The notes under the pieces are model-generated. The model worked only from the letters and a program-made list of their open reading frames with translations. It had not been told where the DNA came from and did no database searches. Shown here piece by piece: positions 4,325 to 59,431 of a stretch of 64,000 nt of DNA; position 1 is the first letter of the stretch, and each line of letters begins with the position of its first letter. This DNA comes from Candidatus Latescibacterota bacterium (GTDB lineage: Bacteria > Latescibacterota > UBA2968 > UBA8231): NCBI GenBank assembly GCA_965206595.1, contig OZ242214.1:6462675-6526674 (forward strand), in the 5' to 3' direction. A program made the position numbers and the translations under genes.

Positions 4325-5874
4325 ACTTCGCGCCGGCAGCGCCGGGAACCGTCTACATCGTCGGGGGCGGCCCGGGAGACCCGGGCCTGCTGACCCTCAA
4401 GGGGGCCCACCTGGTCTCCGAGGCGGACGTGATCCTCTTCGACGACCTGCTCGACCGGCGCCTCCTCGGCCTCGCCCGCGAGGACTGCGAGCAGGTGTAC
4501 GTCGGCCATCGCGGCGGCGCCGGCAGCGGCGGCGCGCGGAAACAGGAGGAGGTCAACGGACTGCTAATTCAATTGGCGCGCGCGGGCCGCCGGGTGGTGC
4601 GCCTGAAGGGGGGGGATCCCTACATCTTCGGCCGCGGCGGCGAGGAGGCGGTGGCGCTCGCCGAAGCCGGGGTGCCGTTCGAGGTGGTCTCCGGAGTGAG
4701 CGCGGCCTCCGGGGTTCCGGCGTACGCCGGCATTCCGCTGACCCACCGCAACGTCTCCGCGGCCGCGGTCCTCGTCACCGGACACGAGGACCCCGCGCGC
4801 AGCGCCCCGGGGGTCGACTGGGAGCTGCTTTCCCGGCTCGACAGCACCCTCGTCGTCTTCATGGGGTCGCGCAAGCTCGGCGAGATCGCGACGACGCTGA
4901 CCCGGCACGGGCGCTCGCCCGAAACCCCCGCCGCGGCCATCGAGTGGGGGACGTGGCCGCACCAGCGCACCGTGGTCTCGACCCTGGGACAGGTCGCCGA
5001 TGCCGCCAGGGACGCGGCCCTGGAGTCGCCGACCCTCGTCCTTGTGGGAGAGGTGGTCTCCCTGCGCGAGCAGCTCAACTGGTTCGAGGGGAAGCCGCTG
5101 TTCGGCCGGCGCATCCTCGTCACCCGCAGCCGCGAGCAGGCCGGCCGCCTGCAGCTGATGCTCGAGGCGGAAGGGGCCGAGGTCCCGGCGCTGCCGCTGC
5201 TGGAGATCGGCCCGCCCGCGGACTGGAGCGATCTCGACGACGCCCTCGGCCGCCTGCCGGAGTTCGCCTGGATCCTGTTCACCAGCCCCAACAGCGTCAG
5301 CTATTTCTTCGACCGCCTCGCTGCCGGGGGGATGGACGCCCGCGCCCTGGGCGGCTGCTCGATCGCCGCGGTCGGCCTGTCGACGGCGCGGCAGCTGCGC
5401 CGCCGCGGCCTGGTGCCCGACCTCGTCCCCCGGGAGCAGTCCCAGAAAGGGCTCGCCGCGGCCTTCGAGGAGGTCGCGGTCGCCGGGGCCAGCTTCCTTG
5501 TGCCTGCCTCTTCCATCGGCCGCACCGGTCTCGACGACGCCCTCGCCCGCAGGGGAGGCCGCGTTTACCGGGTCGTCGCCTACGAGAACCGCCCCCCCGA
5601 CCCGGAAACCGTCGAGCTGCCCGCGGCCCTGGTCGCAAACCGGCTCGACATGATCGTCTTCGCCAGCCCTTCCTCGGTGCGCAACTTCCTCACCGTCTGC
5701 GGCCCGGAAAAGGGGAGGGCCCACCTGGCCGCAACCGCCCTCGCCTGCATCGGCCCGACCACGGCGCAGGCGGTCCGCGACCTCGGGTTCGAGGCCGCCC
5801 TGCAGCCGGCAGAGAGCAGCATTCCCGCCCTCGTGCAGGCGATCTGCACCCACTACGCCGGGGAGCGCCCGTGA
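4321..5874 (+). CDS. cobA: Uroporphyrinogen-III C-methyltransferase fused to uroporphyrinogen-III synthase (CobA/HemD bifunctional)
   Basis: N-terminal VYIVGGGPGDPGLLTLKG...GGDPYIFGRGGEE (SAM-dependent SUMT) and a C-terminal HemD-like half (RILVTRSREQAG...IVFASPSSVRNF). ATGA overlap with the hemC stop; the upstream part of ORF 4000..5874 is rejected. Confidence 0.85.
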   Translation: MNFAPAAPGTVYIVGGGPGDPGLLTLKGAHLVSEADVILFDDLLDRRLLGLAREDCEQVYVGHRGGAGSGGARKQEEVNGLLIQLARAGRRVVRLKGGDPYIFGRGGEEAVALAEAGVPFEVVSGVSAASGVPAYAGIPLTHRNVSAAAVLVTGHEDPARSAPGVDWELLSRLDSTLVVFMGSRKLGEIATTLTRHGRSPETPAAAIEWGTWPHQRTVVSTLGQVADAARDAALESPTLVLVGEVVSLREQLNWFEGKPLFGRRILVTRSREQAGRLQLMLEAEGAEVPALPLLEIGPPADWSDLDDALGRLPEFAWILFTSPNSVSYFFDRLAAGGMDARALGGCSIAAVGLSTARQLRRRGLVPDLVPREQSQKGLAAAFEEVAVAGASFLVPASSIGRTGLDDALARRGGRVYRVVAYENRPPDPETVELPAALVANRLDMIVFASPSSVRNFLTVCGPEKGRAHLAATALACIGPTTAQAVRDLGFEAALQPAESSIPALVQAICTHYAGERP

Positions 5875-6893
5875 GCCCGGAGCGCTACCCCGCCGGCAAG
5901 CTCCCCGCGGAGCTGCTCGGGCGCATGCTCTCCCGCTACGCTGCGCGGGAGGACGAACGCCTGCTAGTTCCCCCCGGCATCGGCGAGGACGCCGCCGTCA
6001 TCCGCTTCGGGGACCGCTGCGTGGTCGCCAAGACCGACCCCATCACCTTCGCCACCGACGAGGCCGGCTGGTACGCCGTCCACGTCAACGCCAACGACGT
6101 CGCCGCCATGGGAGCGACCCCACGCTTCTTCCTCGCCTCCGTCATCCTCCCCGAGGAGCAGGCGACGGAAGCCCTGGTCGAATCGGTGTTCCGCTCGATC
6201 GACGAGGCGGCGCGGCAGTTGGGGATCACAGTATGCGGCGGCCACACCGAGATCACCCGCGGCATCGACCGGCCCATCGTCGTCGGGCAGATGCTCGGGG
6301 ACGTCGACTGCGGAAAGGTGGTGCGCTCCTCCGGCATGGTGCCGGGAGACGCGGTGCTGCTCACCAAGGGGATGGCGGTCGAGGCCACCGCCATCATCGC
6401 GCGGGAAAAGCGCGGGGAGCTGGAGGAACGGGGGTTCGACACCGGCTTCCTCGATGGCTGCGCCGGGTATCTGCGCGACCCCGGCATCAGCGTGGTTCGG
6501 GACGCCGCGATCGCTACCGGGACGGCAGAGGTGCACGCCATGCACGACCCGACCGAAGGGGGGGTCGCCACCGGTCTGGCCGAGATCGCAGCCGCTTCCG
6601 AAGTCGGCCTCGAGGTGTTCGGGGACCGCCTGCGCTGCAGCGACGAATCGCGGCGCCTGTGCGCCGAGTACGGCCTCGACCCGTTCGGGGCGATCTCCTC
6701 AGGCGCCCTTTTGATCGGCTGCCCGCAGGAGGCGGCGGACCCAATCCTGGCGGCGCTGGCCGAAGCGGGGATCGGCGCCGGGATCGGCGCCCGTGCGGTC
6801 GACCTGGCCGCCGGTCTGCAGCTGCGCCGCGGCGGGCGTCTCGAACCGATGCCCCGGTACGAGGTCGACGAGATCACCCGCCTGTTCGGCTAG
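5871..6893 (+). CDS. AIR-synthase-related protein (PurM/HypE/ThiL superfamily), function unknown
   Basis: GEDAAVIRFGDRCVVAKTDPITF...HVNANDVAAMGATP...CGGHTEI...HDPTEGGVATGLAEIA is a PurM-like fold. GTG start at 5871 overlaps the cobA stop. Confidence 0.65.
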   Translation: MSPERYPAGKLPAELLGRMLSRYAAREDERLLVPPGIGEDAAVIRFGDRCVVAKTDPITFATDEAGWYAVHVNANDVAAMGATPRFFLASVILPEEQATEALVESVFRSIDEAARQLGITVCGGHTEITRGIDRPIVVGQMLGDVDCGKVVRSSGMVPGDAVLLTKGMAVEATAIIAREKRGELEERGFDTGFLDGCAGYLRDPGISVVRDAAIATGTAEVHAMHDPTEGGVATGLAEIAAASEVGLEVFGDRLRCSDESRRLCAEYGLDPFGAISSGALLIGCPQEAADPILAALAEAGIGAGIGARAVDLAAGLQLRRGGRLEPMPRYEVDEITRLFG

Positions 6894-7057
6894 GGCCTGC
6901 TCGGCATCTGTCCGCAGCAGGGCGTCAAGCCTGAACTCCCTCGCAGAATCTCCATTTGGGGAAAAATCCAGCGATCTAGCGCCTGAGACGGGCGCGGCTT
7001 CTTTCGAGTAGAATCGAGCTTGAAGGAGGAGGGGCGGGCGGCGGCCCGTCGGCGAAA

Positions 7058-7092
7058 CCGTATATAATACGGGAGCACCGTATTATATACGG
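7058..7092. promoter_or_regulatory. Inverted pair of AT-rich dyad sites CCGTATATAATACGG-gagca-CCGTATTATATACGG (CGTAT-N3-ATACG cores); candidate upstream activator sequence for the sigma54 activator
   Basis: Perfect 15-bp inverted repeats with a 5-bp spacer in otherwise GC-rich DNA. The same CGTAT-N3-ATACG dyad recurs at 12826..12844 upstream of the second sigma54 promoter. Without the IS it would lie ~140 bp upstream of the promoter at 8087. Confidence 0.4.
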
Positions 7093-7143
7093 CAGGACCG
7101 GAAAGCTGGTGCCACCAAGACGAGTTGATGGCGGCGAAAAGAA

Positions 7144-7998
7144 GAACCTATCTCAAAATTGAAATTGTTTAAGCAAAATCAAAATGGATGCAAGTTGGAC
7201 GAAGCCAAGAAAATTCTCCGGATACAATTCCCAGCGAGTGATCACTCGACGCTGCCATTGAAGCCAAGCAAAGAATCTCTCAACCATCCAAGGCCGCACA
7301 TAACGCCGCAATCGCCGTCCATCCTGAGTCTTTTTCTTGGTCCGATTCTGGCGATGCGGGGCGATCATCTCGATCCCGTCTTTCTTAAGCTCTTCATCCA
7401 ACGAATCGCTGTCGTACGCCTTGTCGCCGATCAAGTTGTCAGGTTGGTCTTCGATGAGGTAAAAGTCAAAGGTCAACTGAACCAGCGTCACTTCATGATG
7501 GTTCGCTGCATGCGTGCTCACCGACAAGGGAAGCCCATTGCCGTCCACGATCCCCATGACCCGCACCCCCTTACCTCGCCTGGTGTGGCCGATATCGGCA
7601 CCTCCACCCTTGGCCGCCGAGAACATGCCGTCGATGAAAGCCTCCGATTCGTCCAAGCCCCCTTGCTCGTGAAGGGTCTGGGCCAGGTCCATGAGAACTT
7701 CGCGTACCACCCCTTGACGACACCCGTTTTGAAAACGGCGATGCACGGTTTTGTAGTTCGGATAGCACGGCGGCAACATATGCCATTGAGCCCCGGTGTT
7801 TAGAATCCAAAGAACGGCTTCAAAAACATCACGGGTGCAAACCGGTTTGCGACCCCGGATGGCTCTTGGGACGAAGTTCTTCAGGAAAGTGATGCCGGAT
7901 TCGTTGCCATTGCATGTCGGTCAGGTTGACCATACACCAATGGTACATCACTGTCATTTCGAAAACAAGTTTAAGTTTGCCTATTTTGAGATAGGTTC
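7144..7998 (-). mobile_element. IS5-family insertion sequence (IS427/IS1031-like, ~855 bp) with 16-bp terminal inverted repeats GAACCTATCTCAAAAT
   Basis: Terminal IRs at 7144-7159 and 7983-7998. Lower GC than the flanks. Encodes a DDE transposase. Flanking AAG/AA direct repeat is consistent with a short target-site duplication. Confidence 0.8.
7153..7933 (-). CDS. IS5-family DDE transposase, two overlapping ORFs (orfA 7829..7933, orfB 7153..7828) joined by a frameshift
   Basis: orfA MVNLTDMQWQRIRHHFPEELRPK... stops at 7829. In the adjacent frame ...RDVFEAVLWILNTGAQWHMLPPCYPNYKTVHRRFQ... continues to 7153, the classical IS5/IS427 two-ORF transposase organisation. Confidence 0.8.
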
Positions 7999-8086
7999 AA
8001 GAAAAAGTGGTGTTAGTCAGCCACCGCAAAAACAACAGGTTACGAAAACTACAAACGCCAATTCATGGGCTCCCCGGCCATGTTCA

Positions 8087-8100
8087 GGCACGCCTTTTGC
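8087..8100 (+). promoter_or_regulatory. Sigma54 (-24/-12) promoter aGGCACGccttTTGC
   Basis: Matches the TGGCACG-N4-TTGC consensus with correct GG/GC spacing, ~74 bp upstream of the ATG at 8174. Near-identical core to the promoter at 12980. The flanking ~100 bp is homologous between the two loci, including a shared AAAAACAAC-NN-GTTA 15-mer. Confidence 0.55.
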
Positions 8101-8173
8101 GAGTCTTCGAAATCGACAGGGAAAGGGGGAGCCTGTCGGGCCCATGCCCGGGCAGAACAAGGAGGAGAAACAG

Positions 8174-9157
8174 ATGCTTTTTTCCGTCACAACGAATCGG
8201 TGGAGCATGGCCCTCGTCCTGCTCATCGGGCCGGCCCTGTCGGCCGAAGCCCACGTCGGCGGTCGAGTGTTCCCGATTCCCGAACTCACCGACGAAATGC
8301 TGGCCGAGATCCAGCTCGACGGCTTCGTGGAGGAGTGGTCGGATCTGATCGGCGAACCGACCCTGACCCTGCTTGACTTCACCCACGGAGGGGGGGGGGG
8401 GGGGAGCCTCGATCCGTCGGATATCGACTTCCGGATCTGGCTGGCCTGGCACGATGATCCGGCTCGTATCTATGCAGCCTTGGTGGTCGCCGATGACGTT
8501 TACAAGAATACTCACACTTACGATGTGGATTGGGCCACCTCACTAAAAAGTAGCATGGTTGGCGGCAACGACAGTATTCGCCTTGGAGTCGACGGAGATC
8601 ACAGCGGCGGTCCCGGGTTTGTTGATCAATCATTCGAAACAAAGGAACTCGCGGAGGCCGAACTCGTGAAGGTCTCTGGGAAGACCCAGATGTATGAGGC
8701 CATTTCCCGCACTCCTGATGGACCGACCGTGGATGCCCGGAGATCCAGGTACTGGAGCGGGGTCTTCTCCTGGATGGCCCTTCCTCCCTTCGCGGAGGCC
8801 GGCGGCAGGGTAGCCGGAGAAACGCCGGTCATCTGGTCGATCGAGCTGTACATCACGCCGTTCGACCACAGGGGGGAGGAGTTGACCAGCCCCGAAGGGA
8901 GTGTGATAAGCGATCTGAGCGCCGATCGGTTCATCGGCTTCGCGATTGGGGTGTTTGATGAGGACGGGCGGGATCCTCATACGGAACCAAGGAGGTTGAT
9001 ACCGGAAGCCTTGGCGGGTCCCGATCATGAAGTTTTTTCCGATATGTCTGATTTTCGCGCCGACAATTTTCTCGATGGGCTGCTGCTGCCGGCTGGAGGC
9101 ACTGCGGTCGAGTCGGTTACCTGGGGCCGGATCAAGGCTTCCCTGGAACTGAAGTAG
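8174..9157 (+). CDS. Secreted protein, paralog 1 of a four-member family of unknown function; signal peptide MALVLLIGPALSAEA|HVGGRV
   Basis: RBS AAGGAGGAG at 8158-8166. Shares AHSGGRV(F/Y)PI...DEML..I.LDDG..EW..L.GEP..TLLDF, IWLAWHDDP.R.Y, DGDHSGG, YEAI.RT..GP, PPYG..GGGV.GE.PVI..IELY.TPFD and a C-terminal WGRIKASLE with the ORFs at 13463, 14512 and 15586. Confidence 0.8.
   Translation: MLFSVTTNRWSMALVLLIGPALSAEAHVGGRVFPIPELTDEMLAEIQLDGFVEEWSDLIGEPTLTLLDFTHGGGGGGSLDPSDIDFRIWLAWHDDPARIYAALVVADDVYKNTHTYDVDWATSLKSSMVGGNDSIRLGVDGDHSGGPGFVDQSFETKELAEAELVKVSGKTQMYEAISRTPDGPTVDARRSRYWSGVFSWMALPPFAEAGGRVAGETPVIWSIELYITPFDHRGEELTSPEGSVISDLSADRFIGFAIGVFDEDGRDPHTEPRRLIPEALAGPDHEVFSDMSDFRADNFLDGLLLPAGGTAVESVTWGRIKASLELK
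8390..8404 (+). repeat. G15 homopolymer inside the coding sequence of paralog 1 (encodes HGGGGGGS); candidate slipped-strand phase-variation tract
   Basis: ggag + 14 g + agcc read directly. It lies in the loop that is hypervariable among the four paralogs (DFTHGGGGGGSLDPS vs DFSEDQGFPLDPS / DFQTHSNFLPPDPS / DFSSQNDFEALDPS). Confidence 0.7.
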
Positions 9158-9509
9158 CCGGCGTATCGTCCGGTCCATTTCGCAGCCTTCCTTTCAAGCC
9201 CTCGTAACATTGGCTTTCCCTAAAGCATTCCTTCCGGCTTGGCCCTTTCCAGCCCTCCTTCTACTGAACGCACGCCTGGACCGCTCAAGCTGACCGTCTT
9301 CCTTTCGCTATGTTCGCTCCTGTGGCAGCCCCCCGCCGTGGCCCCCTACATGGAATAGAATGAACCGATGGTTAAGCAGCTGGCTGGCTGACTGGTAATC
9401 CAGGTAAGGTGGGGGAAAAACATCCGCCCCATTGTGCTGCCACACTGGCGAATCGCCAAACCGAAGACACCGAGGGGCGCGTCGGGTAGAGCCCCGTTCA
9501 AGACCGCTT

Positions 9510-31917: not shown

Positions 31918-34809
31918 TCAAAACCCCAGTATGAGGCTCATGAACATCGATGTGGTCCTGCTGTTGCGCTGCTGCTGGCGCGCGTCGAGAAACTCGATCT
32001 TGCGGTAGGCCAGTCCTGTATTGACGGTCATGTCGTAGCCGAAGTACTCGGAGAGGTTGGTGACGAACAAGGCCCAGTCCCGGCTCTCGAAGCTGCTGCT
32101 GTCGTCCGTGAGGTCCTTGAACTGATAGGCGAGGCCGGGCAACGGCAGGCCCTGCATGCCGGCCTTGAGTGCGGTTCTCGAGGTCATGCGGTACGCGGCC
32201 TTGAAGATCGGCATGATCTCGCGCTCGTGAATCAGCGGAACGCCCAGGCTGCGGCGCTCCCGGCGTAGATAGAGCAGTTTGAACTGCGGCGTCAGCGTCC
32301 ACTTGCCACGACGCCAGGAGTAGCTGGTCTTGTGCACGCCGGCCAACAGACCCAGACGATCGCCCGGTTGAAAAACGCCGTCGTCGAAGAGTGTCTCCCG
32401 CTGGTCGTTGATTTCCACTTTCACCTGGTTGACCAGCTGGAGATGGCGGAATGCTGTCACGCGACTGGCCACGTAGCTGCGGTTGACCAAGCTGTTGCGG
32501 TAGTTGAGCTCGTCGGCGATCCGCTCCGTGCTGAACTGACTTTCGTATCTGACTCCGCCGAAATTGTAGGCGCCGCTGGGCACCTCCGAGACGCGCACGG
32601 TCTCGTTCGGAATGTCATCGTGGACGCGCTTGATCTCGTGCTCGAAGCGGATCTTACCCAGACCTGGTTCGCGCAGTGCGTAGATGAGTCGCAGGTAGTC
32701 GACGCGGCTCGCGCGCCCGCCAGCGATCTGTTGCGTGCGCAGAAGTCCGGGGGCCAGGCGCAGACCCGGCAGGGGCTCCACCCATGTGCCGAGATGGAAT
32801 CCTTCGAGATCGAGGTCATAGGGATATTCCGGATCGATATCGTCTTCGCGCTCGTCCGGCACGTCATTGTTGTCCAGATCAACGCCGTAGACGTACTCGT
32901 CGGACTCCACGTCGAACATCAGGAAAGGCTCGACGTAGTCCGGGAGGTTGTTGAAGTTGCGGTTGGTATCCGGAATGCCGTCCCGGTCCTCGTCCTTGCC
33001 CGGAAACACCCCGTCGGTGTCCTCGGTGACAACGGCGTCGTCGGTGATCTGGCCGGTCCAGATGTCTGGAAAGCGATCGTGATCGTCGTTGTCCTGGACG
33101 AGCGGCCAGAGGCCTGTGTTATTGATGAAGCCGCGGCGGGTGTACTGGTGGTTCTCGTTATGGGGCAGCGAGGTCATGAGGTAGGTGGTGAAGTCGGGTT
33201 GCATGGAGAACAGCTCGCCCCCCAGTCCCCAACGCTCGGAATCCTGAGTCGCGACCAGGTACCAGGCCCGTCCGTGGCGCTCGTGCCGGCGGCCATCCCG
33301 TTCCTCGTTCGGGTAGCGGTTGAACTCTCTGCTGAGTGCGTATTCCCCGGCGATCTGAAATCCACCGAACTCGGCGTGCATGTCGATGCTGTAGACAGAT
33401 AGACCAGTCGGCCATCCGTAGTCGAAGCGAACCCACTGCACGTTGGAGAAATTCTGCACATTCCCGGGGGCCCGCTCGATGGTGCGAAGGAGCTCCGCCC
33501 GGTAGAGGTTTTCGTAGTTGTCGCTCCGACCCTTCTCCTGGACCTCGGAGATCGAAATCACGTAATCGTTCCCCACCAGAAAGCCCAATTCCACCTCATC
33601 CACTTTCTCCTCCAGGCCTTGCAGGTCGAAGTAGTAGATCAGGAAGTCCTCGCCGTCCGCCCTGTGCCCCTTGCCGGGCAGCAGTTCGACGTTGGTAGTC
33701 AATTGCACCACATCGGCCTGGCGGCTCACGTCCGTGCCGTTGTTGTGGTCTTTCAGGTATAGATAATCGGCGAATAGCGGGAGCTGCTGTGGCTGCTCGA
33801 GCAGCTTGAAAATGTCGGCTTGTCCTTGAACGCTTCGGCTGATAGGGATGGCATAGCCATTACGGGTGAAGCGGCCGGTCAGGTTGTTGGTGCGGCCCAC
33901 CGCCGTGTTCCTCGTGTGGTGGAGTACCACATCGGGGCGGATGTCGTCCCGGCGTTCGCCGTTGACCCAGACGGCGATGTCGAAGACCTGCGGCCCCCCT
34001 GTGCCATCCTCCGGCGAGTCGTCGGCGATCTGCACCGCCAGCCACAGAGGCGTGCCGCGCGTGGCAGGGAACGATCCCTTCATGGTTCGCTCCCCATCTG
34101 CGTTGTGCTCCGAGTGGACATTGACGTAGCTGGCGCCCAGATCGAGGATGCCGATACTGCGCTCGGAATGGGCTCCGAAGAGCTGCACCGGATTCTGGTC
34201 GCGAAGCAGGCCGTTGAGGACGAATGCCGCTGCGTGGTCGCGTGGGTAGAGCGGAGTGGTGAGGCGCGATGCCACGATGGAGATCCGCGTTTGGTCGGTC
34301 ATCCAGTCGCCGCGGAACCCGTTCAGTCCTGCCCAGTAGAGCGTGAGCGGCGTGAACATCGTGCGGATCTCGCTGCCGAACATCGCCCTGGCCGACCAGC
34401 CATCGTAGGCGTCGCCGGCTATCATCACATTGTTGAAAACGCGCTCGAAGCGATTCTGGGACTTGAAGAGTTCGCTTTCGAGTCCCTCCGGGGAGTGCGA
34501 CTCCCGCCACGAGGCGACGTCGTAGCCGCTGAGCAGGCGATCGCCCAGGGGGCCGTAGAAGGTGCGGCGCGAAGTGGTATAGGGGAACTCGAAGTCCTCG
34601 TAGTTGGCGTAGGGCGACATGGCGTGGCTCGTGAAACCGGGAAGCCGCCGCCCTAAAAACGGGTGGGCGGGATACACCTGCCGCAGCGCTACGTCTGCAG
34701 TGCGCGCGTCGTCCTCTCCGTCGCCGGGGCCGTCCTGGGCGCAGAGCGGGATCGCACACAGCAGCGCGACTGCTGACGCCAAAGCTGTGGTTTGATATCC
34801 CGCTGACAT
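31918..34809 (-). CDS. Large outer-membrane-like protein, paralog C (963 aa), thrombospondin-type-3-like Asp-rich Ca-binding motifs, C-terminal ...LILGF
   Basis: Signal peptide ALLCAIPLCAQ. FTPLTLYWAGLNGFRGDW. FPGKDEDRDGIPDTNRNFNNLPDYVEPFLMFDVESDEY...DLDNNDVPDEREDDIDPEYPYD. Alternating hydrophobic C-terminal strands ending in F. Confidence 0.7.
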   Translation of the reverse strand: MSAGYQTTALASAVALLCAIPLCAQDGPGDGEDDARTADVALRQVYPAHPFLGRRLPGFTSHAMSPYANYEDFEFPYTTSRRTFYGPLGDRLLSGYDVASWRESHSPEGLESELFKSQNRFERVFNNVMIAGDAYDGWSARAMFGSEIRTMFTPLTLYWAGLNGFRGDWMTDQTRISIVASRLTTPLYPRDHAAAFVLNGLLRDQNPVQLFGAHSERSIGILDLGASYVNVHSEHNADGERTMKGSFPATRGTPLWLAVQIADDSPEDGTGGPQVFDIAVWVNGERRDDIRPDVVLHHTRNTAVGRTNNLTGRFTRNGYAIPISRSVQGQADIFKLLEQPQQLPLFADYLYLKDHNNGTDVSRQADVVQLTTNVELLPGKGHRADGEDFLIYYFDLQGLEEKVDEVELGFLVGNDYVISISEVQEKGRSDNYENLYRAELLRTIERAPGNVQNFSNVQWVRFDYGWPTGLSVYSIDMHAEFGGFQIAGEYALSREFNRYPNEERDGRRHERHGRAWYLVATQDSERWGLGGELFSMQPDFTTYLMTSLPHNENHQYTRRGFINNTGLWPLVQDNDDHDRFPDIWTGQITDDAVVTEDTDGVFPGKDEDRDGIPDTNRNFNNLPDYVEPFLMFDVESDEYVYGVDLDNNDVPDEREDDIDPEYPYDLDLEGFHLGTWVEPLPGLRLAPGLLRTQQIAGGRASRVDYLRLIYALREPGLGKIRFEHEIKRVHDDIPNETVRVSEVPSGAYNFGGVRYESQFSTERIADELNYRNSLVNRSYVASRVTAFRHLQLVNQVKVEINDQRETLFDDGVFQPGDRLGLLAGVHKTSYSWRRGKWTLTPQFKLLYLRRERRSLGVPLIHEREIMPIFKAAYRMTSRTALKAGMQGLPLPGLAYQFKDLTDDSSSFESRDWALFVTNLSEYFGYDMTVNTGLAYRKIEFLDARQQQRNSRTTSMFMSLILGF

Positions 34810-34827
34810 GGATCGCCTCTGCGGCCG

Positions 34828-37482
34828 TCAGAGATTCTGGCTGGGATTCAGGCCCGCGACCAGACGCAGGAAGAAGAGCGTGTAGTCCTGGTCGAGAAAA
34901 GCCCTGCGCCTGTCGGCCATGCGTTGGATCTTGAGGTGATAGCCTACGCTCAGCCCCAACTGATAACCGCTGTACGACGACACGTTGGAGAGACTGATCA
35001 TGTAGTCCCGCGCATCGTAGTCATTGTCGGCCCGTGCAAAATCCCGGAACCGGCTCTCGAGAAAGGGAAACCCCTGGGCGCCCAAGCGCAGCGCCGTATC
35101 CGGCGTCATCTGGTAGTAGATCTTGAAAATCGGGTAGTAGAACAGCTCGTGGAGAGGCTGGATTTCGCCCGCATCGTCCGAGAGCTTCTGCACCATCAAC
35201 TTCATCTGCGGCATCACCGACAGCGTACCCAGTTTCCAGGTGTAGTCGCTGCGCAGGACCGTCGCCGAGCGCCGGATCCAGTTCACGTCTCTAGGCGCTG
35301 TAGCCAACTGGCGGTTCGTTTCCAACAGGGTCTTGAGGCGGATGTGGAACGGCCGGAAATGGTAAAGTTCGATATCGGCAAACGCCGAGTTGGCCAGGCT
35401 ATTCTGCATACGCAATTGATCTTCGGCGAAGACGGTCCCGAAACCGGTGCTGCTGAAGGTGAAGCGAAAGACGTCGTTGCGGATGTCGTCCCGCACTCGT
35501 TTGAGGAAATCCACGGCGCGGATTCTGACAAGGCCGGCGAAGTCGTGTTGGTACTCCGCCTTGGTGTAGAAGACTTCAGCCTCACCTGCGCCCCACAACT
35601 GTCGCGTATCGTAAGCGCCCAGGGTCAACGTCAGGGGGGACAGGGGGCGCCATTCACCGAACAGGTGCCAGCCCCGTAGATTGCGGTCGTAGGGGTAGTC
35701 GGGTTTGAGATCGTTCTCGCGGACGTCGACGACGCCGTTGTTGTTCAGGTCATCGCCGTACTCGAACTCGTCCGGGTCGACGCGATAGAGCATGAACGGT
35801 TCGACGTAGTCGGGCAGAGCATTGTCGTTCTCGTTGATATCCGGTCGCCCGTCCAGATCCTCGTCCAGCCCGGGGAACACCCCGTCGATGTCTCCCTGGG
35901 AGGGGATGAAATAGGTATCGGCGAACGGATCCTTGTCATCGTTGTCGTCTACCGTGTCCATGTCGATGGTATTATTGGAATGCAGCGGGAAACCGGCTTT
36001 GAACTCGGTGGAGTACGGCTGGACGGGCAGGTCGGTGTAGGCGGCGTAGCCCTCATAGCGCACGCTGATTCCGGTACTGTAGTCCGGGTCGACGTTGAAG
36101 TACTCGCCCCCGATCGCTACTCGGCCTCCAAACTCCCTCCGGAGGTTGACGAAGTACGCCAGTGCCTCGCGCCGATGCCGGGCACCCTCCAGGTCGGGGT
36201 ACTGGAGGTGGTTCAGATTGACATCGAATTCGCCTCTGAACCGGAATCCCTTGAACGAGGATTCCGCGTTGGCACCGAAGACCGTGTTGCCGGTCTGCCG
36301 GCCGTAGTCGAAGCTCACCCGCTGGAGGTTCGATCCATCGAGGGCTGATTCGTCATTGCCGGCTACGCCGGCGAAGTAGGTAGCGCGGTTCCGCTGCCTC
36401 GGATCACGCTTGTCCGCAAGGGGGTTCGCGACGAGGACCTCCGAGACAGAGATTTCGTAATTGTTGGCAACCAGGGCGTCGAAACTGGCCCCGAGAACAT
36501 CTTCATCTTCCGGCAATTCGAACCAGTAGAGCACAAATTCGCTGTCGTCCACCTGGATGTAGCCTTGAGGGCTGGGACTTTCCGCAGGGAAATCGCCCCT
36601 GATGAACTCGATATAGGGAGGAATCGTCCTCTCGAGTGGAAAGAACTCGTCGAAGTTCTCGAAACGGGGGTTGACAACGTGGGCATCGTGACGGGTTACC
36701 ACGGGTTCAACATCCCTCGGTTCCCCGTTGAGTGTCAGGTCGATATCGTAGACGCGCGCGTTGCTGTGCCTGCGCATGTCGGCATTGGCGACCTTGACGA
36801 CCAGCAGCTGAACCGTGGCCATCTCGGAAGGCGTGGTTCCCTTGATGCTGCTTCCCTCCGTGCCCAGCAGGGTGTTCACCCTGAGCTGATTGGTGAACGT
36901 GGCGCCCATTTTTAAGGGCCCCCGGTCCGTCTCCCAATGACCCCCCAGCAGGTAGGTAGCGAAGTTCAGCTCCTGGTTCTGGTCCACGTCTGGCAGGGTC
37001 CAGAGAGGGAAGTCACGGCGGGAGGTCACCAGCGACAGGCGATGGCCGCTGCCCTCCACATCCCAGCGGATGCCGTTGAGAGCGGCCAGATCCAGAGTGA
37101 GAGGGGTGAAGTGCGTACGGATGCGGTCGCCGATGAGCAAGCGCGTGATCCAACCATTGTAGCTGTCCTGGGCAATGGCCAGACCATTCAGATATCTGTA
37201 GTAGAAGAAGTGTTTGTTCAATCGGCTGCCAGGGGGAACCAGTTCGGCCCCGACCCGGTTTTCTCGCAGAGAGTAAATCTCGACTCCATTCATCAGTTGG
37301 TCGCCCAACTGGTCGAAGAGGGGCCTAGTCGATCGGCCCAGTACACCGCGGCCGTAATGGCGGTATCCCTGCTCGCCGTAGTTATCGTACCTGGGCGTTT
37401 CGTTGTAGAGGAGCTGAGCCGTCGCGCCACTGGCGGGAAGGGCGAGGAGCCACAGTATCCGGAGGGATCGGCGGCGTATCAT
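34828..37482 (-). CDS. Large outer-membrane-like protein, paralog B (884 aa)
   Basis: MIRRRSLRILWLLALPASGATAQ signal. FTPLTLDLAALNGIRWD. FPGLDEDLDGRPDINENDNALPDYVEPFMLYRVDPDEFEYGDDLNNNGVVDVRENDLKPDYPYD. ATGA overlap with the upstream paralog. Confidence 0.7.
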   Translation of the reverse strand: MIRRRSLRILWLLALPASGATAQLLYNETPRYDNYGEQGYRHYGRGVLGRSTRPLFDQLGDQLMNGVEIYSLRENRVGAELVPPGSRLNKHFFYYRYLNGLAIAQDSYNGWITRLLIGDRIRTHFTPLTLDLAALNGIRWDVEGSGHRLSLVTSRRDFPLWTLPDVDQNQELNFATYLLGGHWETDRGPLKMGATFTNQLRVNTLLGTEGSSIKGTTPSEMATVQLLVVKVANADMRRHSNARVYDIDLTLNGEPRDVEPVVTRHDAHVVNPRFENFDEFFPLERTIPPYIEFIRGDFPAESPSPQGYIQVDDSEFVLYWFELPEDEDVLGASFDALVANNYEISVSEVLVANPLADKRDPRQRNRATYFAGVAGNDESALDGSNLQRVSFDYGRQTGNTVFGANAESSFKGFRFRGEFDVNLNHLQYPDLEGARHRREALAYFVNLRREFGGRVAIGGEYFNVDPDYSTGISVRYEGYAAYTDLPVQPYSTEFKAGFPLHSNNTIDMDTVDDNDDKDPFADTYFIPSQGDIDGVFPGLDEDLDGRPDINENDNALPDYVEPFMLYRVDPDEFEYGDDLNNNGVVDVRENDLKPDYPYDRNLRGWHLFGEWRPLSPLTLTLGAYDTRQLWGAGEAEVFYTKAEYQHDFAGLVRIRAVDFLKRVRDDIRNDVFRFTFSSTGFGTVFAEDQLRMQNSLANSAFADIELYHFRPFHIRLKTLLETNRQLATAPRDVNWIRRSATVLRSDYTWKLGTLSVMPQMKLMVQKLSDDAGEIQPLHELFYYPIFKIYYQMTPDTALRLGAQGFPFLESRFRDFARADNDYDARDYMISLSNVSSYSGYQLGLSVGYHLKIQRMADRRRAFLDQDYTLFFLRLVAGLNPSQNL

Positions 37483-40157
37483 TCGACCCGCATGTGGATG
37501 AAAACTTCGCTGGAATGTCGCGAGCCGACCGAGCTGTTGTGCGCAAAGTCGAAGCGACTGGCTTTGTAGCCCATCAGGAAACTGGTGTCGTAGCCGATGT
37601 AGTTGTCCCGCGTCTGCACGGTAAAGATGAAGTGTTCGGCGTCGAAGTCGTCGGCAGGTGCAGGCTCGCTGCGAAAGCGATGTTTGAACAGGAGGGGAAA
37701 TCCCTGGACCCCGGCGCGCACCACCGTGCGCGGGGACGCCTGATAGTCGAGGCGCAGGATCGGGAAGAAGGTGTAGTCCTGAATCAACGCTTCTGCCCCA
37801 TCCGAGGCGGTCTCTCGCGCCGTCGTGAACTTGACCATCGGCATGAGCGAGAAGGAACGCCATTTGCGCAGGTAATCGGCCTTGGCGACAGCCCTCCACC
37901 CACGCAGGGTGCGTTCTTCCCGGATCGTCTGAGCTTGCTCGACCTCCTCGAGCTGGTTGTTTTGCTCGTAGCGCAGAATGGTTTCCAAGCGCAGAGTGGA
38001 AACCGGGCGCAATCGACATCGAGCGAACAGGGTATTGACCAGGCTGTTGCGCATCTCCAGCGGATCGGGGCGCACCTGGATCGAGAAATTCTCCAGCACT
38101 CGTGGATCGATCCTGAATTCGTAGGTACTGGAAGCGATGTCGTCGCGGACCCTCCTGCCCAGGTAGTTCAGCTCCAGGTGGCCGGCGGAAGACAGCTTGC
38201 GGTGGAGGTGCAAGCGCAGATAAGAAGTCCGGTTTTCGCCACCTCCAGCAGTCTGTTCGATATCGTACCAGCCAGCCGTTACGTCCAACGCAGGTGAAGG
38301 ACGGTAGCCGGCGAAGACGTGGGGTCCCCCCGAGTCGAGCTCGTAGGGGTAGTCGGGCCGGTTGTCGTTTTCGCGGACGTCGATGATACCATTGTTGTTG
38401 TAGTCGTCTCCGAATACGAAGTCTTCCGGCTCGACGTGGTACATGAGGAAGGGTTCCAGATAGTCGGGCAATCCATTGTCGTTGACATTGGTGTCCGGCG
38501 TGCCGTCCCCGTCCTCGTCCAGTCCCGGAAAGACCCCGAAACCGATCGCCTCGTTGGGAGACGGCACCAGGTTGCGATCCGCTTCCGGCGTGGGGCGGCC
38601 TACCGATTGCAGGGTGTATCGGGGGTCGAGGGGTTCCCAGTGCTCCCAGCTGTCCGCCCATTGGTCGCGGTCGTCGTTGTCCTCCACCATGTGGAAGACA
38701 TCGAACTGGTTGATATCTTGCCGCCAGTAAGTGAAATCCGTCGAAAAGGTGGCCGGCACCTCGAACAGTTCCAGCCCCAGCCGCCATGCTCCCACCGGTC
38801 GCTCCAGCGTCAGGTAGTAGGCGTCGCGCTGGCCCTCGAACCGGCGCCCTTCGAAAACCGGGTACTGGGAGAAGTCGAAGTTGCGCACGTACTCCCCCCT
38901 GAGAGCAAAATCATACAGTGCCAGATCGACATCGGCTCCGTACGTAGCGATCCCCGTGGAGGCGGAGTAGGAGAATCTCTTCCTCTGCGGGGTGGCATCC
39001 CCAGCCCCGGGGTTGCCGGGCGCCCGCAGCACGTTGTGCCAATCGTTCCAGGTGATGCCGACAACCCCCCGCCGGGGCAGCTCGGCTGCGACGTCGATGC
39101 TGTAGTCATGGGAGACGAGCGCCTCGAACTCGACCGCAGAGGCGCCATGGGGAACATCGAAGCGGTAGATGAGAACATCCGTGCCACTTGCCTCCAGGAA
39201 ATCCTCTGCGCTCGGCGCAACGACCGGAGCGTCGTCGATGAGATTGCGGAAAGAGGTCCAGGGAAGCACAGCGCTCAACCAGGACTGGCGCCGACGCAGG
39301 TGGGAAACATCCTCCACGGTCAGCTCGCGCTGGCGCTCGATGTCCTGCACCTGGCGGATTTCGGGTGTCAGATCAGCACGAGCTGTTCCATCTACCAGCA
39401 TCACCATGTCGTAGACTCTGGCGCCGGACCCATCGTCGGGTGAGTCGTCGCAGACGATGACGAACAGGGTCTCCGGGGGCTGCAGCTCGTTGGGGAGGTT
39501 GCCCTTCTGCGAACTCCTCTTGCTCCCGACCAGGCTGTCGGTGTAGTGGAGATTGACGTAGGAGGCTCCGAAGGTGAGCACATCGCCGAGGGTGCCTTCC
39601 CAGCGGCCACCGTAGATATAGTTGGCGAACTCCCGGCTGCGCAGGCCGCCGGAGAGGATGGGGTCCGACACGCGCGAGGCCACGATCGCGAAGCGGTTAC
39701 GGCGCGTCGCAGCATCCCAGCGCATGCCGTTGAGACGGGCGACGTTGAGGGTGAGAGGGGTGAAGGTGGACTCCACCGCCCTGCCGATCGTCAGCTTGCT
39801 GGACCAACTCCGGTAACTGTCGCTCGATATCACCAGATTCTGGAACAGGTTGGTCAGCGCGAAGTCCTTGAAGAGGAGGCTGCCATCGAAGGGGTCGATA
39901 CTGCGAAACTCCTCGAGGCGGAACACCTCGACCCCGTCGAGCATGTACATGCCGAAAGAATCGAAGGTCCGCTGCTCTTGATCGATGTCGTAGCCCCGGT
40001 AGCTGATGCTGGCGAGGTTCTCGTGCTCCTCCTGCTGCCAGCGTGGATAGGACTGGCGGTTGAGGAACTGGGCCTGGGTGTCTCGGCTGTCCAGCAGGAG
40101 ACTGAATAGCACTACCCCGCCGCCTACCGCGAGGCTTCTCACCCTGTACCTCTCCAT
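37479..40157 (-). CDS. Large outer-membrane-like protein, paralog A (892 aa)
   Basis: Signal peptide. FTPLTLNVARLNGMRWD. VFPGLDEDGDGTPDTNVNDNGLPDYLEPFLMYHVEPEDFVFGDDYNNNGIIDVRENDNRPDYPYE. Confidence 0.7.
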   Translation of the reverse strand: MERYRVRSLAVGGGVVLFSLLLDSRDTQAQFLNRQSYPRWQQEEHENLASISYRGYDIDQEQRTFDSFGMYMLDGVEVFRLEEFRSIDPFDGSLLFKDFALTNLFQNLVISSDSYRSWSSKLTIGRAVESTFTPLTLNVARLNGMRWDAATRRNRFAIVASRVSDPILSGGLRSREFANYIYGGRWEGTLGDVLTFGASYVNLHYTDSLVGSKRSSQKGNLPNELQPPETLFVIVCDDSPDDGSGARVYDMVMLVDGTARADLTPEIRQVQDIERQRELTVEDVSHLRRRQSWLSAVLPWTSFRNLIDDAPVVAPSAEDFLEASGTDVLIYRFDVPHGASAVEFEALVSHDYSIDVAAELPRRGVVGITWNDWHNVLRAPGNPGAGDATPQRKRFSYSASTGIATYGADVDLALYDFALRGEYVRNFDFSQYPVFEGRRFEGQRDAYYLTLERPVGAWRLGLELFEVPATFSTDFTYWRQDINQFDVFHMVEDNDDRDQWADSWEHWEPLDPRYTLQSVGRPTPEADRNLVPSPNEAIGFGVFPGLDEDGDGTPDTNVNDNGLPDYLEPFLMYHVEPEDFVFGDDYNNNGIIDVRENDNRPDYPYELDSGGPHVFAGYRPSPALDVTAGWYDIEQTAGGGENRTSYLRLHLHRKLSSAGHLELNYLGRRVRDDIASSTYEFRIDPRVLENFSIQVRPDPLEMRNSLVNTLFARCRLRPVSTLRLETILRYEQNNQLEEVEQAQTIREERTLRGWRAVAKADYLRKWRSFSLMPMVKFTTARETASDGAEALIQDYTFFPILRLDYQASPRTVVRAGVQGFPLLFKHRFRSEPAPADDFDAEHFIFTVQTRDNYIGYDTSFLMGYKASRFDFAHNSSVGSRHSSEVFIHMRVE

Positions 40158-56248: not shown

Positions 56249-59200
56249 TCAGATGCCCAGCTCCTGATGGACCTCGCCGGAGGATGTGCTCAGTCTGACC
56301 TTCCACCGGGTGTAACCGCCGTCGACAGTGACCTCGGCTTCGCCGGCGTCGGTCTGCAGCTCGAATCCGTAGTGGTCCGGTCTGACCGCGATCTCCGGCA
56401 GCGGGCCGTCGGCGCGATGGGCGGTGAGCATGGCGAGGAAGGGCCGGCCCGGTTGCGCATGGGCGCGCAGAATCATCGCGTGCTCCCCTCCGGTGCGGGC
56501 AAACAAGTCCCTCTCGCGGATGTCTTCGCGGGACCAGTACCAGGTGCGCTTGTACTCCGCCATCTGTCCAGGCTCATAAGAGCCGAGATGCGCATAGCTG
56601 CTGGTCAGCAGGTCGGGCTCCTGCGGTCGGGCGAAAGCGACGGCCAGGTCGATCCCGAGCTGTCCTTTGAAACGAGCCGTGGTCCCGGTCGCCCGCACGT
56701 TGTCGGCCAGAACCTGAATGCTCCAGTCGGTGGGCAGGGTTCCCGCGATGTCGTCGAGCAGCACCAGGGTTTCCAGGGGTTTCAGGTACAGCAGGTGACG
56801 GCGCCAGCGGTGTTCAGGCACCTGCTCCCACGGCGCGCTGACGTACTCGAAATGCTGGTGTCGAAAACGCCGCGGCCATTCGGGGAACTCCTGCAGCTCG
56901 GAGATGGTCTGTTCGGCGCAGAGAAAGTCGATCTCGGGGGAAAACCGGTGGGCGAGGAAACGCCCGGGATTGCGGCGGTCCTGCCTGTGGTCGATGGAGA
57001 TGCGGTTGTTCATCCAGGGCTGGTCCATCATCGGGCTGTACCCGGTCATGTAGTCGATCAGCATCGGGGTCCCGTAGGCATACCAGATGAAGCTGCCCTC
57101 GTCGCCGTCGAAGTGCCCCCTGTTTTTGCCGGTCTTGAACATGAGGAAGCCCTCGGTCCGCTTCCCGTCCCCGTGGCGGTGCCTCAGCATGGCCCCGGTC
57201 TTGCCGCACAGGCGCGAGTCGGCGACCTCGACTTCGACATCGTCGTCGAGCAGATCGCGGTCGATGAAACACAAGGGCTGGGCCCAGATTGTACAACCGT
57301 GCGCTCCGGCATCGCGCCAGTTTATGATGTAGGATCCGCATGCCCGCCAGGCGCGCATGCAGCGCAGGCTGAATTCCGGATCGATGGGGCGGTACACCTT
57401 CGCCGCCAGGGCCAGGAAGGCCGACTGGGAAAAACCGCCGGAGGAACCCGATGCCGTATGCCCGAGCGGCGGGTACATCCGCTTGTTTTTGTTGCGCGGG
57501 TCGGGCGGCGTCAGGGTATCGATCCAGTACTCGAGGGCTTTTCGAAACCGCGGCTTTTCTAGTAACGGTCGGGCTTCGTCGGTGCCCATGATCAGGGCGC
57601 ACTGCAGGAAATAGCCGAAATCAATGGTCTGATAGGTAAGCGCTTCATTCCCGGTCCCGGCGTCATCGATTTCGTTTTCCAGCACCCAGTCGATCTGATC
57701 GCGGATGGCGGCGAACCACTGCTTCTGCTTGGGATGTCCCTCGGCTCGACCCCCCAGGACGGCGCGCCCGAAGATCACGTGGGTGTTGAAATTCCGCATG
57801 CTGAGCGCCAGGCCCGATTCGTAGCGCGGCCAGGTGTCTTCGCTGATGATGGTCTCGGCCAGAAACAGCATCTTGCGCAGCAGGGCCAGGCGCTCCTCCG
57901 CGGTGAACTGCCCGCTGCCGAGAATGAAATCGAGAGCGAGCGCGTCGCGCGGAATCGACTGAGCCAGACTGATGCCGAAATTCCGCTCGTTGCCGATGCT
58001 GTACCCGAGCATGCACTCGACCAGGGGCGCAAATCGTGGAACCAGCTCTTCCTTGGCGCGTGCGGCGTAGGATTCGTCGCCGGTGGCCAGGTACCCGCCG
58101 GCCAGATCGCGCCCGATCGGGGGCAGTCCCTTGGCCAGCAGCATATCCTCTCCGGCGAGACTGTTGAAGAACTCGTCCTCGACATGGGCGAAGAAGGTCC
58201 CCCTGAACCAGTCCCATTCGTCCAGTGTCCTGCGGATCTCCGGCAGCTCGCCGGCGCCGAGAAAGATGCCGGGAAAGCGGGCCTCTTCGATGCCGGGCCA
58301 GTCGAGATCCATCCGGGCGTAGTCGTCGAGCCCCAGCGCCATCAGCCGCGCGCACAGACGGTCGATGTCGTTGGCGGGATTCCGCCCCGGCTCGCAGGAA
58401 AGATCGGCCTCTTCCCGGTCGAGCATGGCCAGCGCGAACGGCCTGACGCCTTCCTGCAGCGGCAGCGCCAGATCGATGCGCTTTTCGCCGTCGACCTCGG
58501 CCGCCGAGTGCTGCGCCCAGCGCAGCCGGTTGGCGTGGGTGTAGCCCGCTCCGGAGGGATGCCGCGTCCACAGCTCTCCTGCGGCCACCCGGGTCTGGGA
58601 GGGGCGGATAGGGGCCACCATCAGCACGTCCCGCCGCTCGCCGCCGGCATACCAGCCTGCCCAGATGTTGCTGCGATCAAATCCGTGCAGGTACATAAGC
58701 CCCAGCTCCATGCGCTCGGGTTCCGCAGGATAGCGCATGGAGTAGGTATGCCGGTGGTAGTCGAACTGGCGATAGATGGGCACCCGCGGGGACTGGGACG
58801 GGCGCCAGTACGCCTGGGTCGGCTCGAAGCCGCGCCCGAGGTGCCACACCACCGCCCCTTCCGCGTCGCCCTCCTGCTCCTGCCAGTAGCGCAGCGCGGC
58901 GGTGGCCGCGTCGACTTCCCAGGTCAGCCGGAGGGTGGAACCGTCGGCCAGCGCCCAGGTCTGGCGCAAGCGCACCACCACCGGACCGCCGGCAAGGAGC
59001 TCGCAGCGCAGGTCTTGCGCCGGCGGCGTGTCGGCGGCGAAGGAGGAGCCGCCGAACCAGATGCCGTCGGCACCACGGACGGCGATCATCGGACCGGCTT
59101 GCGGGTCGGCCCCGTCCCAGCTTATGCGCAGACCGAAGGACGCATTGGTCACCTCCGCTACACCGGGCGAGATCTTCAGGGAAAGAGGAGTGTCCGGTGG

Positions 59201-59431
59201 CGCGGCCGCCTCGCGCAGGGCGAAGGATTTGCGCGCCCCCGCGGGCAGATCCGTCACCCATGCGACCTTCGGCTCCGTGGCATGCAGCTGAGCCGCCGTC
59301 GCATTTCCGCTTTCGTCGATTACCTCCAGACAATCTGTCTGAGGTCTCGACTGCAGGTCGTGCCACACCACTTCGTCCGGCCAGTCGTGGTCGACGTACT
59401 CAACCAGATCCCATTCTTCCATCACCCGCAT
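56249..59431 (-). CDS. Heparinase II/III-like (polysaccharide lyase) family protein, tandem copy 1 (~1060 aa)
   Basis: MRVMEEWDLVEYVDHDWPDEVVWHDL... N-terminus with RBS GGAGA; Hepar_II_III-like C-terminal half (...GHFDGDEGSFIWYAYGTPMLIDYMTGYSP...); ~90% identical to copy 2. Confidence 0.65.
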   Translation of the reverse strand: MRVMEEWDLVEYVDHDWPDEVVWHDLQSRPQTDCLEVIDESGNATAAQLHATEPKVAWVTDLPAGARKSFALREAAAPPDTPLSLKISPGVAEVTNASFGLRISWDGADPQAGPMIAVRGADGIWFGGSSFAADTPPAQDLRCELLAGGPVVVRLRQTWALADGSTLRLTWEVDAATAALRYWQEQEGDAEGAVVWHLGRGFEPTQAYWRPSQSPRVPIYRQFDYHRHTYSMRYPAEPERMELGLMYLHGFDRSNIWAGWYAGGERRDVLMVAPIRPSQTRVAAGELWTRHPSGAGYTHANRLRWAQHSAAEVDGEKRIDLALPLQEGVRPFALAMLDREEADLSCEPGRNPANDIDRLCARLMALGLDDYARMDLDWPGIEEARFPGIFLGAGELPEIRRTLDEWDWFRGTFFAHVEDEFFNSLAGEDMLLAKGLPPIGRDLAGGYLATGDESYAARAKEELVPRFAPLVECMLGYSIGNERNFGISLAQSIPRDALALDFILGSGQFTAEERLALLRKMLFLAETIISEDTWPRYESGLALSMRNFNTHVIFGRAVLGGRAEGHPKQKQWFAAIRDQIDWVLENEIDDAGTGNEALTYQTIDFGYFLQCALIMGTDEARPLLEKPRFRKALEYWIDTLTPPDPRNKNKRMYPPLGHTASGSSGGFSQSAFLALAAKVYRPIDPEFSLRCMRAWRACGSYIINWRDAGAHGCTIWAQPLCFIDRDLLDDDVEVEVADSRLCGKTGAMLRHRHGDGKRTEGFLMFKTGKNRGHFDGDEGSFIWYAYGTPMLIDYMTGYSPMMDQPWMNNRISIDHRQDRRNPGRFLAHRFSPEIDFLCAEQTISELQEFPEWPRRFRHQHFEYVSAPWEQVPEHRWRRHLLYLKPLETLVLLDDIAGTLPTDWSIQVLADNVRATGTTARFKGQLGIDLAVAFARPQEPDLLTSSYAHLGSYEPGQMAEYKRTWYWSREDIRERDLFARTGGEHAMILRAHAQPGRPFLAMLTAHRADGPLPEIAVRPDHYGFELQTDAGEAEVTVDGGYTRWKVRLSTSSGEVHQELGI

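Follow-up and report, generated by a model that had tools for sequence, protein, structure and literature searches.

An 855-bp insertion sequence (IS) of the IS5 family lies between a pair of palindromes, the presumed binding sites of a sigma-54 activator, and the sigma-54-type promoter of a gene designated paralog 1, in a 64,000-nucleotide stretch (the window) of contig OZ242214.1 from a Candidatus Latescibacterota bacterium. The alignments show the divided regulatory cassette at this site (locus 1; dyads plus promoter) as a diverged, approximately 65%-identical duplicate of the cassette that fronts an adjacent operon (locus 2); the view that the IS entered a formerly contiguous cassette rests on paralogous and orthologous comparison with locus 2. 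The first-pass annotation of this DNA had placed an IS5 element between an enhancer-like dyad and its sigma-54 promoter; this placement is borne out by a transposase match to the NCBIfam model NF033580, by the inverted repeats, and by the conservation of the dyads and the -24/-12 elements in two relatives. In our favoured explanation, the IS splits activator sites from the sigma-54 promoter of a duplicated cassette and the promoter keeps its dependence on the activator; we assign this explanation as a whole a probability of about 0.6. The structural part of the reading is supported, and an effect on expression is plausible. The features at and between the two loci are as follows, in window coordinates.

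7036–7143, plus strand: left half of the locus-1 regulatory cassette, homologous to approximately 12808–12899 at locus 2
7058–7072, no strand: distal dyad CCGTATATAATACGG, presumed activator-binding site; distance from its centre to the -24 GG 1022 bp with the IS and 165 bp without
7078–7092, no strand: proximal dyad CCGTATTATATACGG, presumed activator-binding site; distance from its centre to the -24 GG 1002 bp with the IS and 145 bp without
7142–7143, no strand: target-site duplication, left copy (AA), from the 2-bp rule given by six other copies
7144–7998, minus strand: IS5-family insertion sequence, 855 bp, identified from inverted repeats, transposase models and other copies
7153–7933, minus strand: transposase gene, frame broken by one extra G relative to five other copies
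7999–8000, no strand: target-site duplication, right copy (AA), from the same 2-bp rule
8001–8105, plus strand: right half of the locus-1 cassette, with the A-tract and AAAAACAAC..GTTA blocks followed by the promoter
8087–8100, plus strand: sigma-54-type promoter of paralog 1, GGCACGCCTTTTGC, with the -24 GG at 8087–8088 and the -12 GC at 8099–8100
8110–8173, plus strand: 5' leader of paralog 1, with the hairpin CGACAGG...CCTGTCG at 8114–8138; homology to GerE-regulated operons starts here
8174–9157 (alternative start 8144), plus strand: paralog 1, a predicted secreted CBM9/DOMON-like protein according to a fold search, with a 15-nt poly-G tract at 8390–8404
9510–12711, minus strand: gene of a sigma-54 activator (bacterial enhancer-binding protein) identified by Pfam domain scan, frame broken by an extra T near 11060
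12830–12846, no strand: the only dyad at locus 2, GTCGTATTAAATACGAC, at 142 bp from the -24 GG and approximately 120 bp upstream of the divergent activator gene
12980–12993, plus strand: sigma-54-type promoter of locus 2, GGCACGCTTATTGC, a GGCACG-N4-TTGC match

The IS is bounded by perfect terminal inverted repeats, GAACCTATCTCAAAAT, that agree at 16 of 16 nt (7144–7159 and 7983–7998), confirming the length of 855 bp given in the first-pass annotation. These two ends are the only matches to GAACCTATCTCAAAAT in the 64-kb window, which contains a single copy of the element. The plus strand reads CCCC at 7853–7856, as compared with CCC in five other copies (GGGG versus GGG on the coding strand), and the transposase frame shifts after residue 26 or so; this copy therefore lacks the intact frame of an autonomous element. 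When the extra G is removed, the transposase is one open reading frame (ORF) of 259 residues that contains the Pfam domains DUF4096 and DDE_Tnp_1 and scores 199.4 bits (cut-off 110) against NF033580, "IS5 family transposase" (transpos_IS5_3), over profile positions 4–258 of 258. Among the annotated transposases of a plasmid collection, the nearest is the "IS5-like element ISDds9 family transposase" from Deinococcus deserti, with 52% amino-acid identity. The G+C content of the window averages 60–70% and is only 52% in the interval from 7 to 8 kb.

Other copies of the element define its insertion site. The IS ends were searched for in species-representative genomes, and all counts of ends and copies given here apply to the matches listed. 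Among these, IS ends are found in Latescibacterota, Nitrospira, Terriglobia, Kiritimatiellia, Verrucomicrobiota and other phyla, and six full-length copies, all in Latescibacterota chromosomes, are 89–98% identical to the IS in the window and have unrelated flanks. The identity of some copies at unrelated Latescibacterota sites reaches 97–98%, which marks the element as mobile. The other copies are 854 bp long, with one of 853 bp, and the copy in L010 has an additional 1-nt deletion. Each of the six full-length copies is bordered by a direct duplication of 2 bp (AT, AT, AT, CA, AA and TG), and because all six follow this rule the duplication at the window IS is taken as the 2-bp AA. The sequence before insertion is therefore 7143 joined to 8001, with a predicted IS-free junction at which GGCGGCGAAAAGAA is followed directly by GAAAAAGTGGTGTTAG; the empty site originally proposed, 7143 joined to 7999, is corrected by the inclusion of the AA in the duplication. 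The gapless 38-nt match to locus 2 that had been claimed across this junction would need a 5-bp duplication, AAGAA, which this IS does not make, and it was rejected because the six other copies all duplicate 2 bp. The insertion point lies within an A-tract, GAAAAGAA^GAAAAAG, 58 bp downstream of the centre of the proximal dyad and 86 bp upstream of the -24 GG. Of 156 copies of the 16-nt IS end, 109 adjoin the dinucleotide TA, with a bias to TGAC in the bases that precede it. Given this bias, many of those genomes may carry the 16-nt motif as part of a related IS whose duplications are TA or whose ends are longer.

The two flanks of the IS align with one continuous region of locus 2, the left flank with 12832–12899 and the right flank with 12898–12994, and none of 2000 shuffles reaches either score. 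Because the left flank ends at approximately 12899 and the right flank begins at 12898, the two are contiguous in locus 2. When joined they score 39 against locus 2, and the best of 651 control tiles of the window reaches 13, so that the colinearity of the flanks with the second locus, as first described, is upheld. Between the proximal dyad and the promoter the two loci share 65% identity (113 of 173 columns), and the 20 positions that make up the dyad half-sites (CGTAT/ATACG) and the GGCACG/TTGC elements are all identical; by simple arithmetic, the chance of 20/20 identity at a background of 65% is about 2e-4. At locus 1 the dyads are two AT-rich palindromes of 15 nt spaced 20 bp apart, in agreement with the tandem dyad of the first-pass annotation, whereas locus 2 has a single dyad. 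The core CGTAT-N3-ATACG has three exact matches in 64 kb (7059, 7079 and 12832), versus 0.01 expected. Perfect matches to GGCACG-N4-TTGC occur in the window only at 8087 and 12980, and the -24/-12 elements have the exact TGGCAC-N5-TTGC spacing at both loci (aGGCACGccttTTGC at 8086–8100 and aGGCACGcttaTTGC at 12979–12993). The transcription start of paralog 1 is predicted near 8112, about 12 nt downstream of the -12 GC, and that of the locus-2 operon would be near 13005. The A-tract and AAAAACAAC..GTTA blocks of the right half are common to locus 2 and to the relatives L109 and L110 described below. In these conserved spacer blocks the consensus for integration host factor (IHF) was not recognised by eye, the consensus being that of Escherichia coli. 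Five further candidate sigma-54 sites with one mismatch (24642, 29646, 37854, 42875 and 51660) were considered and set aside, as none has a nearby dyad; those at 24642, 29646 and 37854 are within coding-like sequence. Also rejected was a TGGCAC-like match on the minus strand at 7100–7114, which has no -12 GC and is not conserved at locus 2.

The orthologous comparison used two relatives, L109 (approximately 95% nucleotide identity) and L110 (approximately 88%). In L109, locus 2 (8127–8179) has three dyads in 20-bp tandem units as compared with one in the window, an exact 40-bp indel, and in L110 (11565–11597) it has two dyads with a 20-bp spacing. Thus, dyad numbers of 1, 2 or 3 occur in genomes that are 88–95% identical, and the differences between them are exact multiples of 20 bp. 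The conserved islands in L110 are the dyads, the GGCACG/TTGC elements, the A-tract block and an AAAA(C/T)AAC..GTTA block, and the remaining spacer has diverged. GGCACG...TTGC is invariant across L109 and L110, although neighbouring bases vary in L110. Measured from its centre, the proximal dyad lies 142 bp from the -24 GG in locus 2 of the window and likewise in L109, 143 bp in L110, and 145 bp in locus 1 after removal of the IS and one AA, so that all four cassettes have dyad-symmetric sites in the range of about 80–200 bp upstream of the promoter that we took to define an enhancer. The 20-bp spacing of the centres also places multiple sites in helical phase (two copies at locus 1; locus 2 of the window has one copy only). 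Because the spacing of dyad and promoter and the spacer blocks are conserved, a geometry-dependent, bend-assisted promoter architecture is suggested. Apart from one stray match, the orthologous sites of L109 and L110 are the only other places among 110 retrieved loci that have the dyad core, and a metagenome scan with the propeller domain gave three loci, none of which has the dyads or the paralogue operon.

These comparisons bear on the possibility that the palindromes serve some other regulator or role, in which case the IS would have split no enhancer-promoter pair. The dyad of locus 2 lies approximately 120 bp upstream of the divergent activator gene and could serve that gene, and the binding of the activator to the dyads is a prediction from sequence. 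We nevertheless consider this possibility improbable, since the dyads accompany the sigma-54 promoter at a fixed 142–145 bp in four of four cassettes, are arranged in 20-bp tandem units (one to three copies) as expected for the assembly of an activator oligomer, and are essentially absent elsewhere; at locus 1, moreover, they are present without an adjoining activator gene start.

The activator gene lies between loci 1 and 2 and is divergently transcribed, with its start approximately 120 bp away from the dyad of locus 2. Its product has a Reg_prop beta-propeller, a Y_Y_Y domain, a Sigma54_activat AAA+ domain and an AAA-lid. A Pfam scan of the window protein returned no helix-turn-helix domain; a C-terminal helix-turn-helix of the Fis type was judged by eye, and PF02954, which we take to be the Fis-type helix-turn-helix domain, is listed for many homologues. 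The same 7.05-Mb contig encodes at least two Sigma54_activat proteins, including P0178. The propeller-type activator encoded at 9510–12711 probably binds the dyads.

Locus 1 has two sources. Up to approximately 8102 it resembles locus 2, and from 8110 onward (leader, hairpin, ribosome-binding site and gene) it resembles operons of other genomes, with 81–92% nucleotide identity; the fusion point at 8102–8110 falls at the transcription start predicted near 8112. The gene is preceded in these operons by a small ORF of 82 residues and by a HisKA_3 kinase/GerE response-regulator pair, and there is no -24/-12 site or dyad. The six relatives of paralog 1 that were retrieved (P0002–P0005, P0008 and P0009; 77–90% identical) are all non-syntenic, in GerE contexts and without the cassette. 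The comparison shows locus 1 to be a chimera, in which a locus-2-type cassette is fused, at the predicted start, to a gene from HisKA_3/GerE contexts. The hairpin of the leader, at 8114–8138, has conserved counterparts in L004, L107 and L108, and the 64-kb window as a whole, the leader hairpin included, gave no Rfam match.

Several observations weigh against the favoured explanation. (i) No IS-free form of locus 1 was recovered from L109, whose contig ends 8 nt into paralog 1 and leaves its regulatory region unseen, from L110, where the locus is absent, or from the six relatives of paralog 1. Paralog 1, P0001 and the AIRS protein encoded upstream gave no match in exact look-ups; further members of the paralog-1 cluster with at least 90% identity exist (P0361, P0362 and P0363, on contigs of 159 kb, 1.01 Mb and 885 kb, respectively), and a contig with 99.9% identity is present in samples such as ERZ23495182 and ERZ6103948. 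(ii) Locus 1 looks evolutionarily unstable, being absent in L110, having lost a PD40 gene relative to L109, and containing a slippage-prone poly-G tract, and its promoter may therefore already have been dispensable. (iii) The activator ORF is interrupted in the assembly by an additional T near 11060, and single-base insertions relative to relatives are also found in ureC (+T at 645) and in the transposase gene (+G). If the frameshift in the activator is real, loci 1 and 2 would both be silent. Sequencing errors are more likely than pseudogenes as the source of the insertions in ureC, the activator gene and the transposase gene because related long-read contigs, with tags such as 3x and 1x, show comparable breaks in other genes.

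The single-base insertions, in a source that looks like a long-read metagenome assembly, could also be taken to mean that the position of the IS is itself an assembly artefact, or else a minority allele of the sampled population. We regard this as very improbable, because the ends of the IS are clean and carry a 2-bp duplication as at six other sites, and because the flanks continue the cassette with a precision that a misjoin would not give.

The instability of locus 1 would fit an insertion that effectively disconnects paralog 1 from its activator as a step in the decay of a dispensable accessory locus. In L110, which is syntenic, the AIR-synthase-family gene and the 3' end of the activator gene are direct neighbours; the entire interval 6888–9492 of the window (dyads, IS, promoter and paralog 1), set against L110 8131–8234, is without a counterpart. 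In L109, a PD40 propeller gene follows paralog 1 and is missing from the window (window 9354–9491 versus L109 11538–12249). The poly-G tract of paralog 1 varies in length and breaks the frame in near-identical assemblies. Paralog 1 itself, however, is full length and aligns from end to end with its relatives, the -24/-12 elements and both dyads are perfect, and the action of the NtrC enhancer at 1 kb is documented (PMC7408454), so that decay appears rather unlikely. In the window, the poly-G tract at 8390–8404 encodes GGGGGG where relatives have GGGGE; of the cluster members that are at least 90% identical, one has seven Gly residues, one is frameshifted just after the tract (92 residues) and one is called from an internal Met (200 residues). 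This variation is either slipped-strand phase variation or a long-read homopolymer error.

In the favoured explanation, a locus-2-type cassette would have been copied and joined, at the predicted start, to a gene whose nearest relatives in other genomes follow HisKA_3/GerE regulators. The propeller-type sigma-54 activator encoded next to the locus would use the palindromes as its upstream sites, and the -24/-12 promoter would drive paralog 1. Entry of the IS into the A-tract would then have extended the distance between dyads and promoter from 145/165 bp to 1002/1022 bp, a displacement that matches the 1 kb or so of the first-pass annotation, and would have parted the dyads from the conserved A-tract/AAAAACAAC blocks, which remain beside the promoter. 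The promoter would still depend on the activator, acting through a longer DNA loop; its efficiency would be the same as before or moderately lower, and any contribution of helical phasing or bending would have been lost. We favour this outcome on the model of NtrC at glnAp2. According to a review, NtrC sites show no appreciable loss when placed 1000 bp or more from glnAp2 and are less efficient at 6000 bp, and some promoters with two sites depend on the face of the helix (PMC7408454); IHF often assists DNA looping at sigma-54 promoters (PMC7057263). As NtrC sites tolerate a displacement of at least 1000 bp, the effect of the IS may be small.

The same tolerance raises the possibility that the insertion is neutral, the sites being a true enhancer that works equally well at 1 kb and paralog 1 being co-regulated with paralogs 2–4 of the locus-2 operon. 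The NtrC sites work at a distance of at least 1000 bp from glnAp2 and still act at 6000 bp (PMC7408454), and the ORF of paralog 1 is intact. On the other side, the spacing of 142–145 bp is held in four cassettes with conserved A-tract blocks in between, suggesting a geometry-dependent promoter. Bend-assisted promoters such as those of nifH and Pu are sensitive to spacing. Neutrality is thus a serious possibility but, on balance, a doubtful one.

Transcription of paralog 1 from within the IS was also considered. The first-pass annotation had raised read-out from the right end of the element, and this finds no support in its organisation: the transposase gene is oriented away from paralog 1, and a search for outward sigma-70-like promoters gave none, the single sigma-70-like match being on the minus strand inside the IS. 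Because of these two orientations, the IS is not obviously a source of paralog-1 transcription. The sequence TTGAGA in the right inverted repeat was rejected as part of an outward promoter, as no acceptable -10 element was seen by eye.

A wider interpretation, which we offer as speculative and probably too ambitious, treats the dyad array and -24/-12 promoter as a portable cassette of approximately 200 bp that captured a gene of a GerE regulon. Its strength would be tuned by gain and loss of 20-bp sites. The IS would supply a natural allele in which the enhancer is displaced by 1 kb and, with the poly-G tract of variable length in paralog 1, would make locus 1 a contingency locus with transcriptional and translational switches.

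Upstream of locus 1 and downstream of the locus-2 promoter, the window contains the following features.

5871–6893, plus strand: AIR-synthase-family gene (Pfam AIRS/AIRS_C)
6979–7005, plus strand: terminator-like hairpin (stem 6979–6995) and T-run with a T-rich tail, downstream of the AIR-synthase-family gene
13054–17217, plus strand: locus-2 operon, comprising a Cys-rich ORF, paralogs 2–4 and a PD40/TolB-like propeller gene
13054–13281, plus strand: small Cys-rich ORF that heads the locus-2 operon
13463–14407, 14512–15489 and 15586–16575, plus strand: paralogs 2, 3 and 4, homologous to paralog 1
16660–17217, plus strand: PD40/TolB-like propeller gene, the last of the locus-2 operon

The hairpin at 6979–7005 is a predicted terminator that would shield locus 1 from upstream read-through. 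The four paralogues have no match to a family in Pfam, NCBIfam or the sequences of the PDB, and belong to a family with 671 homologues at E ≤ 0.001 and many copies per genome. An AlphaFold model of a paralogue (predicted local distance difference test score 76, predicted template modelling score 0.79) matches the CBM9 modules 7nwn and 1i82_A (E about 3e-8, target template modelling score 0.7) and, more weakly, the gamma subunit of ethylbenzene dehydrogenase. Because of the match to CBM9 modules, the predicted fold of the paralogues is a CBM9/DOMON-like sandwich. The mature N terminus of the paralogues is almost always His, and the motifs DGDHSGG and, at the C terminus, WGRIKASL(EME) are conserved. 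The Cys-rich ORF at 13054–13281 encodes 75 residues and is predicted to be secreted, with a mature end that also begins with His. Equivalents of 82 residues head the GerE-regulated operons (L107 and L108) and the locus-2 operon of L110, which is linked to a sigma-54 activator, and locus 1 is without one. The 99-nt spacers after paralogs 2 and 3 (14401–14499 and 15473–15571) are 97% identical, and the flanking proteins are 58–66% identical, which suggests gene conversion or a conserved element. Elsewhere in the window, a tandem duplication of approximately 3.2 kb occupies 56249–62680, its copies starting at 56249 and 59464 and being 90–95% identical, and 32787–38538 contains three tandem paralogous units about 2.7–2.9 kb apart with a repeated core that is 68–71% identical.

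If the promoter of paralog 1 still responds to its activator, locus 1 is a natural test of long-range enhancer action with sigma-54 in an uncultured phylum. Searches for regulons that demand an activator site within approximately 200 bp of the -24/-12 elements would miss this pair of sites and promoter. CGTAT-N3-ATACG, in 20-bp repeats, becomes a candidate operator for the large and uncharacterised class of sigma-54 activators with propeller sensors, and the comparison of the two loci illustrates how duplication of a regulatory cassette can rewire a paralogue. An IS in a regulatory region is a commonplace event, and the promoter is here a standard enhancer-dependent one. A literature search turned up no description of an IS that separates an activator site from a sigma-54 promoter, an absence that is weak evidence.

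The element shares several features with IS5-family insertion sequences: it has a single DDE transposase of approximately 259 residues with DUF4096 and DDE_Tnp_1 domains, its terminal inverted repeats are short and perfect, it is about 0.85 kb long, and it duplicates 2 bp of its target. It differs in that the transposase frame of the window copy is disrupted by the additional G. The regulatory cassette is similar to the NtrC-glnAp2 and NifA-nifH systems in its GG-N10-GC promoter, its dyad-symmetric sites 100–200 bp upstream, the tandem arrangement of sites two helical turns apart, the AT-rich stretch between sites and promoter, and the presence nearby of a gene for an AAA+ activator of the Sigma54_activat type. 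In contrast to the NtrC and NifA systems, the activator has the loop motif GAFTNA and an N-terminal Reg_prop/Y_Y_Y sensor module rather than a receiver or GAF domain, and the copy number of the sites ranges from 1 to 3 among close relatives. CGTAT-N3-ATACG is unlike TGT-N10-ACA and unlike the sites of NtrC. The closest counterpart of the proposed event is the engineered displacement of NtrC sites (Reitzer & Magasanik 1986; Hao, Shearwin & Dodd 2019), which, to the extent that these studies are cited in PMC7408454, is similar in that inserted DNA produced a shift of approximately 1 kb; the displacement at locus 1, known from its sequence, differs in being natural, driven by a mobile element and found in an uncultured lineage.

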